14,375 nt of DNA from a virus (taxonomy: Duplodnaviria; Heunggongvirae; Uroviricota; Caudoviricetes). This document shows positions 7,088 to 13,944 of the stretch, piece after piece (positions within the stretch are counted from its first letter, which is position 1; each line of letters starts with the position of its first letter). Under the pieces are notes generated by a model that saw only the letters and a program-made list of their open reading frames with translations, did not search any database and was not told where the DNA came from. The stretch lies in IMG/VR virus record IMGVR_UViG_2690316131_000006, one strand, 5' to 3'. Made by a program: the position numbers and the translations under genes.

Positions 7088-7219
7088 ATTCATTACGATA
7101 TGGGAATTCCCATATCGGGTAAAAACGGTTTGCGGTAAAGCGAGAGTTAAGTAGAATTGCTGCGGGTGCTTGAGGCTGTCTGCCTCGGGCATGCCACCGT
7201 AAGGCAGACAGAGAAAAGC

Positions 7220-7285
7220 CCCAGTTAACATTACGCGTCCTGCAAGACGCCTAACATTAATCTGAGGCCAATTTCATGCTAGACA
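7220..7285 (-). ncRNA. sok: Sok-like antisense RNA of the hok locus (approximate position)
   Basis: Minus-strand promoter-like TTGCCT-17 nt-TAACCT at about 7291..7319 pointing leftward into the hok leader; inferred from hok/sok architecture, ends not determined. Confidence 0.3.
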
Positions 7286-7332
7286 TATGTAGGTTAGCCT
7301 CTTACGCGCCGAAAGGCAAGGAGAAGCAGGCT

Positions 7333-7488
7333 ATGAAGCAGCAAAAGGCGATGTTAATCGCCCTGATCGTCATCTGTATCACCGTCATAGTGACGGCACT
7401 GGTAACGAGGAAAGACCTCTGCGAGGTACGAATCCGAACCGGCCAGACGGAGGTCGCTGTCTTCACAGCTTACGAACCTGAGGAGTAA
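7333..7488 (+). CDS. hok: Hok/Gef-family type I toxin, 51 aa
   Basis: MKQQKAMLIALIVICITVIVTALVTRKDLCEVRIRTGQTEVAVFTAYEPEE: transmembrane helix plus conserved C-terminal motif; AAGGAG Shine-Dalgarno; in-frame upstream ATG at 7276 could be a mok-like start; 3' stem-loops and terminator downstream. Confidence 0.9.
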   Translation: MKQQKAMLIALIVICITVIVTALVTRKDLCEVRIRTGQTEVAVFTAYEPEE

Positions 7489-8997: not shown

Positions 8998-9372
8998 ATG
9001 CTCATAGATTTGGTTTTACCTTACCCGCCGACGGTGAACACTTACTGGCGACGCCGTGGCAGCACATATTTTATCTCGGAGGAGGGAAAGCGTTATCGCC
9101 GGGCTGTGGCGCTTATTGTTCGCCAGCAGCGGCTGAAATTAAGCCTGTCCGGAAGGCTGGCGATAAAGATTATTGCCGAGCCACCGGATAAGCGCCGCCG
9201 TGACTTGGACAATATTCTGAAAGCGCCGCTGGATGCGCTGACGCATGCGGGGTTGCTAATGGACGATGAGCAGTTTGATGAAATCAATATCGTTCGTGCT
9301 CAGCCAGTATCTGGTGGACGTCTGGGGGTGAAGATTTACCCCATAATGCTTGAAGGGCAGGTCAAAAAATGA
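8998..9372 (+). CDS. rusA: RusA-family Holliday junction resolvase
   Basis: 124 aa; PPTVNTYWRRRG...DKRRRDLDNILKAPLDALTHAGLLMDDEQ matches the RusA pattern (…RRDLDN…DAL…DD…); AGAGG Shine-Dalgarno. Confidence 0.85.
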   Translation: MLIDLVLPYPPTVNTYWRRRGSTYFISEEGKRYRRAVALIVRQQRLKLSLSGRLAIKIIAEPPDKRRRDLDNILKAPLDALTHAGLLMDDEQFDEINIVRAQPVSGGRLGVKIYPIMLEGQVKK

Positions 9373-10190
9373 AACTGGAAGATTTACCGAAATACTACTC
9401 CCCAAAATCCCCCGGCCTGACTGATGCATCGGCCTCAACGTCGAAAGATACGCTGAGTATCACTGATGTGATGGCTGCGCAGGGCATGACACAGAATTGG
9501 GCTGAGATGGGGTTTTCTGCGTTCCTTGGGAAAATGGGCATTAGTATGAATGACAGAGAGCGGGCAACAGAATTGCTGACAGAATATGCACTCAGTCGGT
9601 GTGATCGCGTGGCGGCGTTAAGAAAACTCCCGGCAGAAATAAAACCGGCAGTGATGCGTATTATGGCTTCGTATGCGTTTGAAGATTATGCCCGTAGCGC
9701 GGCGAGCAAAAAACAGTGCCCCTGTTGTCACGGAAAAAAATTTATTGAAAGCGAGGTTTTTACAAACAAGATCCAGTATCCGGATGGTAAGCCGCCAGTG
9801 TGGGCAAAGTGCACAAAAGGCGTGTATCCGTCTTACTGGGAGGAATGGAAAAAAGTCAGGGAGGTGGTAAAAGTTGCCTGTCCGGAGTGTGGAGGGAAGG
9901 GGGAGGTTTCCACCGCCTGTAAAGATTGTCGTGGGCGCGGTGTTGCCATTCATCGTGAAGAGTCGGTAAAACGTGGTATGCCTGTTATCAGAGACTGCCA
10001 GCGTTGTGGTGGTCGTGGCTATGAAAGATTACCTTCAACGGAGGCATTTAATGCCATATGTAATGTAACCGATGCCATATCTCTTGATACATGGAAAAAA
10101 ACAGTTAAACGTTTTTACGATACGCTGGTGGTGCAGTTTGATATTGAAGAAGCATGGGCAGAACAACAACTGAAAAAGGTGACCAGATAG
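9369..10190 (+). CDS. Putative late-gene antiterminator (Q-like, QuuQ-type position) with four DnaJ-type CxxCxGxG zinc-finger repeats
   Basis: ATGA overlap with rusA; CPCCHGKK, CPECGGKG, CKDCRGRG, CQRCGGRG; immediately followed by a strong promoter and a terminator. Call is by position. Confidence 0.55.
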   Translation: MKLEDLPKYYSPKSPGLTDASASTSKDTLSITDVMAAQGMTQNWAEMGFSAFLGKMGISMNDRERATELLTEYALSRCDRVAALRKLPAEIKPAVMRIMASYAFEDYARSAASKKQCPCCHGKKFIESEVFTNKIQYPDGKPPVWAKCTKGVYPSYWEEWKKVREVVKVACPECGGKGEVSTACKDCRGRGVAIHREESVKRGMPVIRDCQRCGGRGYERLPSTEAFNAICNVTDAISLDTWKKTVKRFYDTLVVQFDIEEAWAEQQLKKVTR

Positions 10191-10192
10191 CT

Positions 10193-10223
10193 TTGTTGAT
10201 TTTTCCCGAATCTGTGGTAAAAT
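10193..10223 (+). promoter_or_regulatory. Late promoter (pR'-like) with extended -10 (TGgTAAAAT)
   Basis: TTGTTGA -35-like, about 17-18 nt spacer, TGgTAAAAT at 10215..10223, directly after the Q-like stop. Confidence 0.5.
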
Positions 10224-10765: not shown

Positions 10766-11791
10766 ATGGTCAATACTGTAAAAATATCCAGTTGTGAATT
10801 AATCAACGCTGATTGCCTGGAATTTATCCAGACCTTACCGGAAAACTCTGTCGATCTGATAGTCACAGACCCGCCATACTTTAAAGTGAAGCCCGAAGGC
10901 TGGGATAACCAGTGGAAGGGCGACGATGATTACCTGAAATGGCTGGACCAGTGTCTGGCGCAGTTCTGGCGGTTACTGAAGCCTGCCGGAAGTCTTTACC
11001 TGTTCTGTGGTCATCGCCTGGCATCTGATATCGAAATCATGATGCGCGAACGCTTTAACGTGCTGAACCATATCATCTGGGCGAAGCCGTCCGGACGCTG
11101 GAACGGGTGCAGTAAGGAAAGCCTGCGGGCGTATTTTCCCGCCACAGAGCGTATTCTGTTTGCTGAACATTATCAGGGGCCATACCAGCCAAAAAATGGC
11201 GGCTATGCGGCAAAGGAGCGCGAGCTTAAACAGCATGTGATGTCTCCGCTGATTTCTTACTTTCGTGATGCGCGTGAATCACTGGGGATAACGTCGAAAC
11301 AGATAGCGGAAGCCACCGGAAAGAAAAACATGGTGTCGCACTGGTTTGGTGCCCGCCAGTGGCAGTTACCGAACGAGGATGATTACAGAAAACTGCAGGC
11401 GTTGTTTGCGCGTGTTGCAGCAGAAAAACATCAACGCGGGGAACTGGAAAAGCCACACCACCAGCTGGTCAGCACATACAGTGAACTTAACCGGCAATAT
11501 GCCAGCCTGCTGGAGGAGTACAAATCTTTGCGGCGTTATTTTTCTGTATCGGCTGCTGTTCCGTATACGGATGTCTGGATGTATAAGCCTGTACAGTATT
11601 ATCCGGGCAAACACCCCTGTGAAAAACCGGCAGATATGTTGCGTCAGATAATAGAGGCCAGCAGTCGTCCGGGTGATTTGGTTGCCGACTTTTTTATGGG
11701 GTCAGGTTCCACGATAAAAGCCGCGCTTTCGCTTGGTCGTCGGGCAATAGGCGTTGTGAGCTTGAGGCTGAACGGTTTGAGCAGACGGTGA
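10766..11791 (+). CDS. DNA methyltransferase, beta-class amino-methyltransferase (N6-adenine or N4-cytosine)
   Basis: N-terminal motif IV DLIVTDPPYF and C-terminal motif I DLVADFFMGSGST (order IV then I); 341 aa; no adjacent restriction endonuclease seen. Confidence 0.85.
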   Translation: MVNTVKISSCELINADCLEFIQTLPENSVDLIVTDPPYFKVKPEGWDNQWKGDDDYLKWLDQCLAQFWRLLKPAGSLYLFCGHRLASDIEIMMRERFNVLNHIIWAKPSGRWNGCSKESLRAYFPATERILFAEHYQGPYQPKNGGYAAKERELKQHVMSPLISYFRDARESLGITSKQIAEATGKKNMVSHWFGARQWQLPNEDDYRKLQALFARVAAEKHQRGELEKPHHQLVSTYSELNRQYASLLEEYKSLRRYFSVSAAVPYTDVWMYKPVQYYPGKHPCEKPADMLRQIIEASSRPGDLVADFFMGSGSTIKAALSLGRRAIGVVSLRLNGLSRR

Positions 11792-11938
11792 GCGAGATAA
11801 GAGAAATTCTGACGTGTAAAGCTGTTGATTGATTAATTAATGCTTATTTTTTCATAAGTCTTGTTGCAATATATAAGTATGGGGTGTAAAGTTGTTCTCG
11901 AAAATAATCATGTTTTCTCACGAATCAGAGGGGGGATA

Positions 11939-12199
11939 ATGATTGAGGTTCGATGGACAAGGACAGCCCTGAAGCAGTTACTTCGTGTGGATACGCGGTA
12001 TCGGCAGGCGATAAAGGATAAGGTCGGTGCGCTAAAGGATTTTCCTCTGGTAGCCATGGATTTTAAAAAGCTATCAGGGAGTGACAATCGATTCCGTTTG
12101 AGGGTCGGCGTGTACAGGGTTATTTTTGATGTTGAGGATGGTGATCCTGTTGTCCTGGATATTAAGGAAATTAAGCGCAGAAGCACAACCACATACTAA
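11939..12199 (+). CDS. RelE/ParE-superfamily type II toxin (HigB-like, toxin-first order)
   Basis: 86 aa; ...NRFRLRVGVYRVIFDVEDGDPVVLDIKEIKRR typical of the RelE/ParE fold; GAGGGGGG Shine-Dalgarno. Confidence 0.8.
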   Translation: MIEVRWTRTALKQLLRVDTRYRQAIKDKVGALKDFPLVAMDFKKLSGSDNRFRLRVGVYRVIFDVEDGDPVVLDIKEIKRRSTTTY

Positions 12200-12259
12200 G
12201 GGAGGCTGGCGGGAGACCGCCAGTTTGCTGAACGACATTCAATCGCGAAAGGCAATGAT

Positions 12260-12634
12260 ATGAAAAACAGTGTCCAGTTTATTACTGATAATGCCGGTGT
12301 TAGAACCGGGGTCATTATGTCAGTTGCTGAATATGAACGGCTGTTAAGTCTGGCAGATCCTGATGATGATTTTGAAAGCATCCAGTATGAAGCCGGAGAG
12401 AATGACAATGAAACAATACCTCATGAAGTAGTATCCATCATGATTGATGATGATGTGTCATTGTTGGCAGCATGGCGGATTTACAGGCGAATGACTCAAC
12501 AGGAAGTGGCGGAGCGCCTGGGGGTTAAACAGTCAGCCGTATCTCAGTTTGAGAGAGCAGGAGCTCCGCGAAAATCAACACTGGAAAAACTGGCTGAGAT
12601 TTACAACTGCCGACCAAATCAGTTGGCTGATTAA
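12260..12634 (+). CDS. HigA-like antitoxin with C-terminal XRE helix-turn-helix
   Basis: 124 aa; ...MTQQEVAERLGVKQSAVSQFERAGAPRKSTLEKLAEIY; directly downstream of the toxin. Confidence 0.8.
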   Translation: MKNSVQFITDNAGVRTGVIMSVAEYERLLSLADPDDDFESIQYEAGENDNETIPHEVVSIMIDDDVSLLAAWRIYRRMTQQEVAERLGVKQSAVSQFERAGAPRKSTLEKLAEIYNCRPNQLAD

Positions 12635-12779
12635 TCCTGAGTTTGGTTTTCGTAGCGATTGCATTTTTCTTATCTGCTTGCCGTTGTAGGTAGCGTGTAT
12701 TTGCATGTTGTTTTGTAGTTAACCTTATGGTTGGCTGAATTTTGTTCATCAATAAAAAATATCCCTCTCTGATCTTTAA

Positions 12780-12805
12780 GGTTCGCTTTGGCGGACCTTT
12801 TTTTT
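12780..12805 (+). terminator. Intrinsic terminator
   Basis: GGTTCGC-tttg-GCGGACC (one G·U pair) followed by eight T. Confidence 0.55.
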
Positions 12806-12941
12806 ATTTCCGCGCCACGCCCGGCGTACATCAAAAACCACAGAGCCTTTCAGGGGTGAGCTTACGGGATGGTCAGTGTGACTTTCTCTGTGGGCTGGTC
12901 ACCCCCGGGCGCAGGCTCACCCACTAAAAGGAAAAGTCACG

Positions 12942-13373
12942 ATGTTTGGTATTTTCAAAAAGAAAACCCGCAGAGCAGCAACTGAAATTAAAAAGTTTGA
13001 GAAACGCGATCTGGCACAGGCGGTTATTAATGCTGCCTACCTGGTGGCCTATGCAGATGGTGAATGTGAGACTTCAGAGAAAGCGAAGATCGAACAGGTA
13101 TTACGTAACCAGCCAGCATTGTCCGCATTTACGTCAGAAATTAATGCCATCAGTGCCACGATCACAGGTCAGCTTGACACCAATTTTAAAATTGGTCGTC
13201 GTGCAGCGTTGCGTGAAATTGAAGATGTGAAACACGATACGCGTGAAGCGGAAGACGTGCTGGATGTGGCGGTGGCCATTGCTGAAGCAGATGGTGAAAT
13301 TGAGCCGGAAGAGCGTAAGGTTCTGGAAGAGATTGCTGGTGTTCTTGGCCTGCGACTGGAGAACCACCTGTGA
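12942..13373 (+). CDS. TerB-family (tellurite-resistance TerB-like) protein, 143 aa
   Basis: Two acidic ADGE motifs (AYADGECETSEKAKIEQ and AEADGEIEPEERKVLEEI) typical of TerB; AAAAGGAAAAG upstream of ATG. Confidence 0.75.
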   Translation: MFGIFKKKTRRAATEIKKFEKRDLAQAVINAAYLVAYADGECETSEKAKIEQVLRNQPALSAFTSEINAISATITGQLDTNFKIGRRAALREIEDVKHDTREAEDVLDVAVAIAEADGEIEPEERKVLEEIAGVLGLRLENHL

Positions 13374-13537
13374 CGGTAAAACTGCGTCTGGCCGCTGTGG
13401 CACTCCTGCTGTTTCTGGTGGTGATGGTGGATTTCACCAGCAGGATCATGTCGGTGCTGGCGGATGGAGTGCTGGTCTGCGGCATTGTGGTATTGCTGTG
13501 GCCGGTGATAAAAAGAAACAGCCTGCATAATGCTTGA
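13370..13537 (+). CDS. Possible small membrane protein, 55 aa, translationally coupled to the TerB-like gene
   Basis: GTG overlaps the TerB stop (GTGA); VTVKLRLAAVALLLFLVVMVDFTSRIMSVLADGVLVCGIVVLLWPVIKRNSLHNA has two hydrophobic segments. Not in the ORF track as such. Confidence 0.35.
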   Translation: MTVKLRLAAVALLLFLVVMVDFTSRIMSVLADGVLVCGIVVLLWPVIKRNSLHNA

Positions 13538-13704
13538 TTTTTTTGTTTGCTGTTTATTAAAAACACTTCTGCATGGTGAATCCCCCTGTGCGGTGGGGCA
13601 ATCAGCAAGAAGGAATATGGGGTAATCGCGGATTCAGGTGCTGATACTGAATTCACCGGGAGGCACCCGGCACCATGCAAGAAAAAGAATGTGCATGCAA
13701 ACAT

Positions 13705-13728
13705 GCCCCTCTCCGGAGGGGCTTTTTT
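13705..13728 (+). terminator. Intrinsic terminator
   Basis: Perfect GCCCCTC-tccg-GAGGGGC hairpin followed by six T. Confidence 0.65.
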
Positions 13729-13732
13729 ATGG

Positions 13733-13760
13733 GTAAAAAAATGCCCGAATGGGTTCGGGC
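13733..13760 (-). terminator. Convergent (minus-strand) terminator-like hairpin
   Basis: GCCCGAA-tggg-TTCGGGC, which on the minus strand is followed by TTTTTTT (13733..13739). Confidence 0.4.
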
Positions 13761-13944
13761 AATAGCATGAGATACTGATATTGTTGTGTTGTTATCGTGT
13801 GGATTTTAACCAGGGTTTATCAGGCTGCGCAACTGCGTGGCCTTTTTTCATTTCTTGGGCTGTAGTCCCCGTGTGTCATTCAGGCTTCCGGACTACAGCC
13901 CACTCCATATCTGATTTAATACACTATCCCGGCCGGGAGGAATA

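Follow-up and report, generated by a model that had tools for sequence, protein, structure and literature searches.

Covarying helices in the predicted 5′ leader of the phage gene pair tciA–tciB, a putative late-operon cargo of a lambdoid Escherichia coli prophage

Toward the end of a 14,375-nucleotide stretch of caudoviricete DNA (IMG/VR record IMGVR_UViG_2690316131_000006; hereafter the window), a gene for a TerB-family protein is joined to one for a very small hydrophobic protein and preceded by a long-range inverted repeat. This arrangement raises two questions, namely what such a pair does for the phage or bacterium that carries it, and whether the repeat belongs to a structured RNA. The original prediction, made from the window alone, took the locus for a candidate abortive-infection or defense module behind a structured leader.

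The pair, which the original prediction did not recognize as a named system, had in fact been named already: it is annotated as tciA/tciB in JLK-2012 and in phage P1, corresponds to PHROG families 632 and 1470, and combines the Pfam TerB and DUF3927 domains. The names were first given in phage P1 and rest on homology only. TciA matches the Pfam TerB profile (PF05099) over residues 26-138 with 60.9 bits (cut-off 24.4; E 1.8e-16), phrog_632 over its full length (residues 1-143 of 143; E 1.7e-69) and, in a phmmer search, the solved Klebsiella TerB 2jxu_A over residues 14-137 (E 9.1e-8); by tblastn it is 41% identical to P1 TciA over the full length. As judged from these matches it is a TerB-fold protein. 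The two ADGE motifs noted in the original prediction lie at residues 38 and 116, and the only acidic-motif residues that are invariant among nine diverse phage homologs are the downstream glutamates E46 and E124. The body of the protein is acidic (charge about -13), and its N-terminus, MFGIFKKKTRR, is hydrophobic and basic (+6.5). The variable sites of tciA are distributed 25/13/101 over the three codon positions. Its description as a stand-alone TerB likewise holds, for no other ter genes (terC, terD, terZ etc.) were found nearby.

TciB is recovered by the Pfam DUF3927 profile (PF13064; E 1.7e-16) and by phrog_1470 (E 2.7e-29), and is 47% identical to its P1 counterpart. The 55-residue hydrophobic ORF originally noticed has two hydrophobic segments, basic tails and a conserved loop motif, DFT(S/G)xxMSxLADG. 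TciB proteins measure 50-57 aa, and all of the 60 DUF3927 cluster representatives are short. An exhaustive phmmer search (E <= 0.001) revealed no TerB–DUF3927 fusion among these representatives, and a word-indexed search also gave none; the one long hit, P0132, was rejected because it is a chimeric gene call that does not resemble TciA. By its profile matches and gene overlap, TciB is a conserved mini-protein of the DUF3927 type, with its two hydrophobic segments, and is translationally coupled to TciA. The overlap itself, in which the tciB GTG start and the tciA stop share the 4 nt GTGA, is as first described and recurs widely: a tciB-type partner accompanies 103 of the 111 near-full TciA loci, mostly with the 4-nt overlap (start offsets of -3 in 89 loci, 0 in nine and +1 in two), so that the small ORF, on whose conservation the original prediction hung, is indeed conserved. 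Since a profile search for loci with the diverse TciA alignment lacked a sufficiently conserved stretch, a single TciA protein was used as the query. Among diverse loci the TciB partner is present in 25 of 31 (Enterobacterales-type loci), and three Pseudomonas loci display a different coupled small membrane partner in its stead, which indicates that the layout of a TerB protein with a small membrane protein is maintained. At loci where the identity of TciA is only 28-44%, that of TciB is 47-58%. Temperate and virulent phages alike inherit the two genes together, and from the coupling and co-inheritance alone we infer a physical TciA–TciB complex.

The pair was found in 1275 of 5426 complete E. 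coli genomes (about a quarter), with a median of three places per genome. It is very common in the prophages of pathogenic E. coli, where it occupies the slot in which Shiga toxin genes sit. In phage P1, a CRISPRi screen showed tciA, tciB and tciC to be dispensable for plaque formation (PMC10695390).

The interpretation of the genomic context that we favor is that a lambdoid (lambda-like) E. coli prophage carries the locus as a cargo within its late, Q-dependent transcription unit. A gene for the Q antiterminator is followed by a candidate late promoter (Table 1), and four terminators on the + strand intervene between that promoter and tciA; a crude promoter scan detected no sigma-70-like promoter in 12500-13900. 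The neighbors here comprise a methylase, a ParE/HTH toxin–antitoxin pair, tciB and sRNA genes, but the methylase and toxin–antitoxin flanks vary between loci and their place is elsewhere taken by tRNAs or Q. In the Klebsiella phage 1 LV-2017 there is no annotated gene between Q and tciA, and the order of Q then tciA is also seen in Klebsiella phage 5 and phage Evi. In P1, tciABC is located in the C1-repressed ban operon. In this lambdoid prophage, in P1 and in the lytic phages, which are all the cases checked, the pair lies in a unit whose transcription is to be expected during lytic growth. Expression of tciAB in lysogens is possible, given that the promoter scan was crude and that the adjacent STnc100 sRNA, which starts 5 nt past the tciB stop, is transcribed in uninduced EHEC (PMC5331693).

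Table 1. Features of the tciA–tciB locus and its predicted leader, in positions of the window
Feature	Positions	Strand	Description
Q antiterminator (PF03589)	9369-10190		Pfam match; about 2.7 kb upstream of the pair
pR′-like site, candidate late promoter	10196-10223		About 2.7 kb upstream of the pair
Intrinsic terminator	12778..12807	+	Stem 12778-12799 and T-run; ends the upstream toxin–antitoxin unit (terminator scan)
Structured 5′ leader (predicted)	12804..12944	+	Full match to covariance model R1, 148.9 bits; ends at the tciA ATG
Hairpin Ha	12812..12827	+	GCGCC / GGCG(U), loop ACGCCC; predicted by RNAalifold
S1 5′ strand, CCACAGAG	12838..12845	+	Pairs with 12886-12893; RNAalifold consensus
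Linker, CCUUUCAG	12846..12853	+	Near-invariant; 8 nt; CCUUU complementary to AAAGG of the Shine-Dalgarno region
S2 5′ strand, GGGTGAGCTT	12854..12863	+	Pairs with 12913-12922; core is the repeat arm GGGTGAGC, 12854-12861
S3 5′ strand, GGGATGGTCAG	12866..12876	+	Pairs with 12895-12905
S1 3′ strand, CTCTGTGG	12886..12893	+	Within the apical loop of the S2+S3 hairpin
S3 3′ strand, CTGGTCACCCC	12895..12905	+	
S2 3′ strand, AGGCTCACCC	12913..12922	+	Core is the repeat arm GCTCACCC, 12915-12922
Conserved block with Shine-Dalgarno, CUAAAAGGAAA	12924..12934	+	7 nt before the ATG; near-invariant across subtypes
tciA	12942..13373	+	143-aa TerB-family protein; Pfam TerB, phrog_632, PDB 2jxu, 41% identity to P1 TciA
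tciB	13370..13537	+	55-aa DUF3927 predicted membrane hairpin, GTG start; Pfam DUF3927, phrog_1470

Hence, we propose, giving it about an even chance of being right, that the pair is a Q-dependent late cargo with a lytic-phase membrane function that benefits the phage, with TciB holding TciA at the inner membrane. Once lytic development is under way, RNA polymerase modified by Q would read past the upstream terminators, and the leader would fold as a self-contained module that sets tciA translation, in either direction. TciB, produced in step with TciA through the coupling, would insert as an N-in/C-in hairpin and tether or partner the acidic TciA at the inner membrane face, with the hydrophobic-basic N-terminus of TciA possibly serving as a membrane-binding motif of its own; TerB has been proposed to be an amphitropic membrane-surveillance domain (bioRxiv 10.1101/2025.09.30.679545). 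The complex might then act for the phage on the envelope state of the infected cell without killing it, the likeliest roles being the exclusion of superinfecting phages or colicin-type insults, or the guarding of membrane energization until programmed lysis. A part in phage-versus-phage exclusion is possible, and for the TerB of Erwinia jumbo phages it has been suggested in a published study that the protein serves in competition with superinfecting phages (PMC7824862).

An alternative, closest to the original prediction, is an abortive-infection module protecting the lysogen, in which TciA would sense infection or membrane perturbation and TciB would be the effector that collapses the membrane. 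The presence of TerB-like proteins in published anti-phage systems, which had been invoked in its support, is borne out by the validated systems Dionysus (whose DinB is encoded with membrane partners), Shango and Bunzi (bioRxiv 10.1101/2025.09.30.679545), and the plasmid Ter system has been credited with a role against phage and xenobiotics that enter the cell (PMC7824862). However, among the PADLOC-DB v2 profiles the best match of TciA, PDC-S48, is not significant (E 0.0028 over 35 residues) and TciB has none, though this 2023 library predates Dionysus and is thus without models for it; moreover, the partner genes of Shango (helicase/ATPase) or Dionysus (MAEBL-TM, 4-TM toxin) were not encountered at tciA loci, and a hairpin of TciB's size is unlike the pore-forming DinC with its four transmembrane segments. 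The situation of the pair in a prophage cargo slot beside a methylase and a toxin–antitoxin pair, next to an sRNA transcribed in lysogens, would also suit such a module, but the flanking genes are not conserved neighbors, and the pair, with no promoter of its own detected, stands behind terminators in a Q-dependent unit and is C1-repressed in P1. Further, far from being confined to hosts and temperate elements, the coupled pair is also carried by strictly lytic phages, namely the Erwinia and Salmonella jumbo phages and the N4-like Schitoviridae, in which self-killing would be counter-selected. This carriage and the lytic-phase context fit poorly with a lysogen-guarding device. Thus, of the original prediction, the conserved coupled membrane partner and the TerB link to defense systems stand, and its abortive-infection reading appears unlikely, and less probable than a lytic-phase function of benefit to the phage.

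Even less probable, in our estimation, is that TciAB is a lysogenic-conversion cargo that provides the host with tolerance to tellurite, colicins or metal stress. Its homology to the TerB of the tellurite-resistance operon and its abundance in the prophages of pathogenic E. coli would be in keeping with such a trait; yet the other genes of that operon are missing from the vicinity, the tci name carries no weight beyond homology, and the presence in lytic phages and in lytic-phase units speaks against a host benefit. Nor is TerB known to confer tellurite resistance on its own.

Turning to the leader, the two arms of the perfect 8-bp inverted repeat (GGGTGAGC and GCTCACCC) are fully complementary, and between the end of the repeat and the GGA of the Shine-Dalgarno sequence there are 7 nt, in keeping with the upstream position first reported. 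On a single sequence the repeat is only mildly unusual: when the 142-nt leader is shuffled with its dinucleotides preserved, at least one perfect 8-bp inverted repeat with arms 20-100 nt apart arises in 8.5% of the shuffles, and two such repeats in 2.2%, while the fold of the leader has a z of -1.86. It rises above chance only through comparison with related sequences. These single-sequence statistics leave room for the view that the repeats are not a functional RNA and reflect chance complementarity in a G+C-rich spacer, a DNA-level element (a recombination or IS target) or a junction kept by recent transfer. In line with that view, S2 shows no compensatory changes within the tciA subtype, where variation only breaks pairs, the count of G·U versus A·C (18 versus 12) by itself leaves the folding strand unfixed, and in PPompW-type phages the leader is split by an element of the IS110 family. 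Against it stand many independent compensatory changes in four helices. In Ha, whose stem variants include GCGCC, CACATC, CCTGTC, TCTGTC and ACACAC, all five pairs have changes on both sides across the family and 97% of cells are paired; the corresponding figures for S1 are seven of eight pairs and 96%, in an alignment fitted by the model, and eight distinct complementary variants occur at its anchored position. For S2, of which the repeat forms the core, five of the ten pairs have changes on both sides across subtypes, with 88% paired in an alignment not fitted to this helix, and an anchor-based test against shuffles gives p <= 0.006 in most subtypes, which upholds the prediction that the leader is structured. 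S3 has 11 pairs, four of them with changes on both sides (87.9% paired), and takes the form of subtype-specific helices such as AGAAAAGCCGTT/GGCGGCTTTTCT (p=0.000) and GGATAACCGGC/GCTGGTTATTC (p=0.010); its 5′ strand overlaps a small alternative hairpin, Hb (12871-75 / 12879-83). The overall covariation score is 0.313 versus 0.131 for shuffles (0/500 reached 0.313) and <= 0.095 for slid registers. Leader homology moreover persists beside strongly diverged tciA alleles, and the copies examined end at the conserved Shine-Dalgarno block and a start codon, in the sense orientation of the downstream gene. Taken with this evidence, the view that no functional RNA is involved strikes us as very improbable, and the leader is, as far as covariation can tell, a conserved multi-helix RNA with four covarying helices (Ha, S1, S2 and S3) and a pseudoknot topology.

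This topology, or alternatively a set of alternative folds, follows from the placement of the 3′ strand of S1 in the apical loop formed by S2 and S3. The co-formation of S1 with S2+S3 is sterically uncertain because the linker between S1 and S2 is only 8 nt long. In the minimum-free-energy fold of the leader, no pairing involves the Shine-Dalgarno sequence. A further pairing (P0) between the CCUUU of the linker and the AAAGG of the Shine-Dalgarno region could form but is near-invariant and displays no covariation, and complementarity is not restored in the single double variant, L159b; we retain it as a possibility. Across 12810-12941, no Rfam (release 15) family scores at its gathering threshold, and at E <= 10 only noise and terminator-like hits at 12760-12812 emerge, the ant-type copy in L001 being likewise without a match. 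This disposes of a known Rfam family for the leader, including yybP-ykoY, which was considered because that riboswitch controls TerC-family genes. An identity with the Pas sRNAs was also rejected, as PasA and PasC map to the interval from the esterase to the holin and PasD/STnc100 follows tciB (Pas sRNA preprint), as was a leader peptide, the sole ATG-initiated frame noticed in the leader being missing from other subtypes on inspection of the alignment.

Of the 118 regions upstream of tciA, 93 contain a homologous leader, even where the adjacent tciA allele has only 42-44% amino-acid identity, and homology is also detectable where tciA is 70% identical at the protein level. The family extends well beyond this gene: in hundreds of phages its members precede genes for Ant, KilA-N, Rha, HNH and tail-tip-like proteins and further accessory genes of the late region, among them an ant gene inside the lysis cassette of the 933W-type Stx phages. 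In searches of viral contigs with the anchor pattern CCTTTCAG N55-85 CTAAAAGG, about three-quarters of the hits were due to chance, and the S2 helix was required as a filter. In most loci inspected by upstream-region alignments, the leader is directly preceded by a terminator or a tRNA 3′ end; neither was present in the 170 nt examined before the leader of phi80. One candidate for a leader driving DUF3927 directly (L002) proved to be a decayed copy that has lost an internal segment and is flanked by IS elements. To all appearances, the family has not been described before.

Read jointly, these observations might mean that the leader is the founding example of a widespread, undescribed class of pseudoknotted phage RNAs, a portable 5′ module of “moron” or accessory genes that sit behind late-operon terminators in lambdoid phages, and likewise in jumbo phages; such a module would gate or insulate the translation of these genes, possibly in answer to a phage or host factor. 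Separately, TciA–TciB would be a minimal membrane-tethered TerB device that excludes competitors or protects the envelope of the infected cell. We advance this joint reading tentatively, our doubts somewhat outweighing our confidence. The leader is the part of the locus with discovery value; it could explain how inserted genes are expressed within long late transcripts. As for the proteins, the pair is among the commonest uncharacterized cargoes of pathogenic E. coli prophages, so any function that came to light would hold for many phages and would offer a minimal system in which to ask how TerB domains act at membranes, a question that also bears on the ter operon and on TerB-containing defense systems.

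Several known systems invite comparison. The leader resembles pseudoknotted 5′ leaders such as riboswitches and translational operators in its multi-helix covarying fold, its invariant joining strands and the way it abuts the Shine-Dalgarno sequence; unlike the case of a metabolite riboswitch, the genes downstream of this leader family are functionally unrelated. The tciA–tciB(–tciC) genes of P1 share with the present locus both protein families, their order, the tight coupling and a place in a phage lytic-phase operon. They differ in that P1 has tciC, which is absent here and, since no record other than that of P1 showed it, is probably no hallmark of the tciA/tciB family; in that model R1 finds no structured leader in the P1 locus (L004); and in that the P1 pair is under C1/ban control, whereas the present locus is under predicted Q late control. 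With the TerB of the terZABCDEF operon (PF05099; 2jxu), TciA has in common the TerB fold, as read from sequence, and the paired DG...E acidic motifs, but it is stand-alone, phage-borne and partnered by a 55-aa DUF3927 hairpin rather than by TerC. Dionysus, compared here by description only, is a host-encoded system of Pseudomonas and Betaproteobacteria that consists of DinA (MAEBL plus a transmembrane segment), the TerB-like DinB and the 4-TM pore-forming toxin DinC (bioRxiv 10.1101/2025.09.30.679545); like the tciAB pair it encodes a TerB-like soluble or amphitropic protein together with membrane protein(s), but it has three genes in place of two, a 4-TM toxin effector and a MAEBL protein. 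Jumbo phages also have related loci: the TerB of the group 1 Erwinia jumbo phages (Iyer et al. 2021, PMC7824862, where TerB is mentioned but neither the TciB partner nor the leader) is a direct homolog with 66-70% identity, and that of a related Salmonella jumbo phage is 76% identical to TciA. These phages are virulent and their locus comes after tRNA genes; the DUF3927 partner and a homologous leader are found there as well.

The tciA–tciB gene pair is already known and has long been named; the interest of the locus comes mainly from the structured RNA leader directly 5′ of tciA. As originally predicted, the product of tciA belongs to the TerB domain family: it passes the curated threshold of the Pfam TerB profile (E 1.8e-16), matches 2jxu, a solved TerB structure from Klebsiella (E 9e-8), and displays ADGE motifs at residues 38 and 116. 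The predicted GTGA coupling to a hydrophobic ORF is likewise borne out, with TciB matching Pfam DUF3927 (E 1.7e-16) and featuring two hydrophobic segments and basic tails. However, the supposition that this is not a named system is refuted, since phages JLK-2012 and P1 have the pair annotated as tciA/tciB. In the PHROGs database, TciA belongs over its full length to phrog_632 (“tellurite resistance”) and TciB to phrog_1470 ([quoted passage not shown]), and in phage PPyecE_EH1910, which shows 98.5% identity to the region, the first gene is annotated as “TciA/TerB-like protein”. The names originate in P1, whose record states “by homology” and whose TciA is 41% identical to the one studied here. 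The pair is a member of this P1-type family, with every defining feature except the P1-specific tciC, and we have hardly any doubt about the identity and anatomy of the locus (see table). A tested function for tciA or tciB was not found in the searchable literature; P1 tciA/B/C scored as non-essential in a CRISPRi screen (PMC10695390) and are merely placed among “cell-division control genes” in a P1 transcriptomics preprint.

Features of the tciAB locus and of other parts of the window
Feature	Position	Strand	Remarks
DicF sRNA	323-374	-	75.8 bits
sok antitoxin RNA	7164-7338	+	114 bits
Q, late antiterminator	9369-10190		PF03589, E 4.7e-50
Promoter-like site	10196-10223		TTGATT-16-TAAAAT with TG; plausible late promoter pR′, directly after Q
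Terminators	10224-40, 10271-88, 10601-18	+	
DNA methylase, N6/N4	10766-11791		PF01555
ParE-type toxin and HTH antitoxin	11861-12634		
Terminator preceding leader	12778-12799		
Leader helix Ha	12812-16 / 12823-27		
Leader helix S1	12838-45 / 12886-93		
Leader helix S2, core	12854-61 / 12915-22		GGGTGAGC / GCTCACCC, perfectly complementary
Leader helix S3	12866-76 / 12895-905		
tciA	12942-13373	+	143 aa
tciB	13370-13537	+	55 aa; GTG start within GTGA overlapping tciA TGA
sRNA STnc100	13542-13734	+	Rfam RF02076, 142.5 bits
Terminator of STnc100	13705-13722		
AgvB (anti-GcvB)	13736-13797	-	96.5 bits

In Stx phages the stx genes occupy the cargo slot of the late operon, and the order of Q, pR′-like site, terminators and gene pair places tciAB in such a slot. 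A promoter scan found no sigma-70-like promoter across 12500-13900, and, judged from position, tciAB should be transcribed by the Q-modified polymerase. Downstream of the pair, PPyecE_EH1910 carries a nanS-p esterase gene followed by the lysis genes. Elsewhere the flanks differ: Klebsiella phage 1 LV-2017 has no annotated gene between Q and tciA, the Q-then-tciA order recurs in Klebsiella phage 5 and phage Evi, and E. coli AST205 has tRNA-Ile/Arg/Arg genes 5′ of the pair and a holin gene directly 3′. Hence, the methylase and toxin–antitoxin genes lie outside the module. The 112-aa ParE ORF as listed begins at a TTG at 11861, with the start of its annotated homologue lying later, at about 11939.

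The tciAB genes are repeatedly adjoined by tRNA genes (L003, L004, L005, L122-L125). In a lambdoid prophage, Ile-Arg-Arg genes precede the pair; P1 has Asn/Thr ahead of it and Ile immediately behind; and jumbo phages have Trp/Cys on the 5′ side and Tyr/Gln/Ile/Met on the 3′ side, the leader there starting roughly 10-20 nt past the tRNA-Cys 3′ end. In the window, STnc100 begins 5 nt past the tciB stop and finishes at its terminator, with the convergent AgvB right behind. As a promoter-like stretch (TTGATT...TATTAA) overlaps the 3′ end of tciB, both an own promoter and processing from the tciAB 3′ UTR are possible for this sRNA. It is related to the Hfq-bound sRNA PasD in a 2026 preprint, and its copies are transcribed in uninduced EHEC. 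Shigella phages 7888 and 75/02 Stx are examples of phages that have it together with AgvB but lack tciAB. The leader does not correspond to any of the Pas sRNAs newly reported for this neighborhood. Further upstream, sok implies a hok/sok-type locus; the early region of PPyecE_EH1910 carries C4 and isrK RNAs instead of sok and DicF, so that the element in the window and that phage are mosaic upstream of Q.

Of 5426 complete E. coli genomes, 1275 harbor tciAB DNA, the median carrier having it in three places, and tblastn recovered TciA in 130 records of Vibrio, Escherichia, Erwinia, Pseudomonas, Klebsiella and Salmonella phages. A TciB-profile match lies directly 3′ of tciA in 103 of the 111 loci with a near-full TciA, the tciB start overlapping the tciA stop by 4 nt (89 loci) or 1 nt (9), or abutting it (2). 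A diverse subset has the partner in 25 of 31 loci; 12 of these 25 seeded the profile, leaving 13 as independent. TciB retains 47-58% identity at loci where that of TciA falls to 28-44%, with a conserved loop motif, DFT(S/G)xxMSxLADG, and close tciA alleles vary mostly at third codon positions (25/13/101 sites by position). Cluster representatives of TciB numbered only 60 in an exhaustive phmmer search; they are, with few exceptions, stand-alone proteins of 39-90 aa, and no genuine TerB–TciB fusion is among them. At three Pseudomonas loci TciA is coupled to a different protein, 67-73 aa long, that has a single TM helix ahead of a cysteine-containing tail and constitutes an alternative small membrane partner family; thus, the conserved layout is that of a TerB protein plus a small membrane protein. 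These partners (L006 1932-2153, L010 1943-2146, L023 2941-3144; phages AF and Ebordelon and a P. juntendi genome locus) share C.WYGYQTER.TK...VGCMV...GW.PR.E.R after the TM helix. A degraded copy (L002 2493-2760), found in E. coli UK_Dog_Liverpool and in about 9 genomes resembling it, lies between IS100, IS4 and IS200 elements; after its leader a deletion joins the tciA N-terminus to mid-tciB, the start codon is mutated to ATA, and a second, partial leader occurs at 458-537.

The coupled pair is also borne by strictly lytic phages, namely the Erwinia/Salmonella jumbo phages ChrisDB (gp6/gp7), Asesino, Caitlin, pEa_SNUABM_6 and pSal-SNUABM-04 and the N4-like Schitoviridae FSL SP-076 and Pollock (gp27/gp28), and in P1 it lies within the C1-repressed ban operon. 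Thus, in every case checked, lambdoid, P1 or lytic, the pair is in a transcription unit predicted to be active in lytic growth. An abortive-infection or defense module, as first proposed for the pair, is the less likely reading, disfavored by this transcription context and by carriage in virulent phages; PADLOC, moreover, gave no significant match for TciA or TciB.

Taken alone, the 8-bp inverted repeat noticed originally in the leader is weak evidence: such a repeat occurs in 8.5% of dinucleotide shuffles of the leader, and the fold predicted for the leader beats shuffles by no more than 1.86 sd. Sequence homologous to 12779-12944 is present in 93 of 118 tciA upstream regions, some adjoining alleles of only 42-44% protein identity, indicating that the leader is more constrained than the coding sequence; jumbo phages too carry a recognizable copy 5′ of tciA. 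Within the tciA subtype (38 unique leaders), RNAalifold predicted Ha, S1 and a small hairpin, Hb, S2 being absent from this prediction. Changes on both sides affect 4 of 5 pairs in Ha, 2 of 8 in S1 and 4 of 11 in S3, and S2 shows zero compensation among these 38, each variable position disrupting a pair. Across subtypes all four helices covary. S1 appears as CCACAGAG/CTCTGTGG, CCGTAGAG/CTCTACGG, CCCAAGAG/CTCTTGGG, CACAGAA/TTCTGTG, CCAAAGA/TCTTTGG, CCAAGAA/TTCTTGG, CGAGAG/CTCTCG and CCACAA/TTGTGG, and S2 as GGGTGAGCTT/AGGCTCACCC, GATGAGCCCTG/CAGGGTTCATC, TGTGAGCCTG/CAGGCTCACG, AAAGAGCCCAG/CTGGGCTCTTT and GAATGAGTCTCG/CGAGGCTTATTC. With CCUUUCAG and CUAAAAGG, both near-invariant, as anchors, an alignment-free test gave mostly p 0.004-0.05 for S1 and p <= 0.006 in most subtypes for S2; on an alignment of 31 distinct sequences, made by a model that left S2 unfitted, both sides change in 5/5 (Ha), 7/8 (S1) and 5/10 (S2) pairs. 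The covariation score on this alignment was 0.313 versus 0.131 in shuffles (0/500 reached 0.313) and <= 0.095 in slid registers. The repeat is thus genuine, as the core of S2.

S2 and S3 make up a long interrupted hairpin holding the S1 3′ strand in its apical loop, with the S1 5′ strand 8 nt upstream of S2; the leader would form either a pseudoknot or two alternative folds. A putative pairing of CCUUU with AAAGG in the Shine-Dalgarno region is near-invariant, and the only double variant fails to compensate. The G·U/A·C count did not settle the folding strand; a conserved Shine-Dalgarno block, with a start codon after it, closes the element in those copies that were examined, all in sense to the downstream gene. 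PPompW-type and some Stx2a phages (LC567818, LC567820, LC567822 and others; matches H173-H183) have just the initial ~45 nt, comprising Ha and the S1 5′ strand; the annotation of the IS110-family element ISEc20 under or beside these matches suggests that an IS has inserted into the leader.

With a covariance model from which S2 and S3 were left out, related elements came to light 5′ of other genes. Similarity searches found an “ant type” in 308 phage records, including 933W/EDL933-type Stx phages, where it sits between R and Rz, and a third type in 48, including phi80, HK639, mEp phages and HK620. Besides TerB (TciA), the genes behind the family code for P22_AR_N + ORF11CD3 (Ant), KilA-N, Rha and HNH + AP2 proteins, tail-tip-fibre-like proteins, a multi-TM protein and proteins without a Pfam family. 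Paralogous copies (L001 17530-17671; L126-L133; L145, L159, L163, L170, L199, L221, L243) stand before unrelated accessory genes, for example HK620 hkbK (KilA-N), an HNH + AP2 endonuclease gene, tail-tip-like genes of phi80 and HK639 and a Klebsiella phage membrane protein gene. Two copies lie about 300 nt apart in L159 and L163, the first in L159 having only an 11-codon ORF behind it. PP818812.1, “Actinobacillus phage vB_Apl-pPE4” (H8, H147), has a leader 97% identical to that of the E. coli prophage studied here, together with a KilA-N copy of the element; as it resembles a lambdoid phage of enterobacteria, its host assignment may be wrong. Conversely, the leader is not obligatory for tciAB: a model search found the pair without it in P1, N4-like phages and Pectobacterium and Serratia prophages. 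No Rfam family matches the leader or the ant-type copy in L001, and the leader family appears to be new. We favor an autonomous fold that would set translation initiation of genes lying behind terminators in long late transcripts.

As TciA combines a hydrophobic-basic N-terminus (MFGIFKKKTRR, +6.5) with an acidic body (about -13) and the TciB tails are basic, TciB may form an N-in/C-in hairpin with cytoplasmic tails that recruits or stabilizes TciA on the membrane's inner face. Such a placement would fit the published idea that TerB is an amphitropic domain for “membrane surveillance” and the proposed use of jumbo-phage TerB in competition with superinfecting phages. The pair might then benefit the phage in the infected cell by excluding superinfecting phage or colicin-like insults or, alternatively, by safeguarding membrane energization until holin triggering. 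This inner-membrane, phage-benefit mechanism is the reading we favor, with modest confidence. Among known systems, tciAB is not a catalogued defense system and is no part of a ter operon; its likeness to Dionysus is in layout only, a TerB-like protein with membrane proteins, whereas P1 tciA/tciB is of the same family, P1 additionally having tciC.
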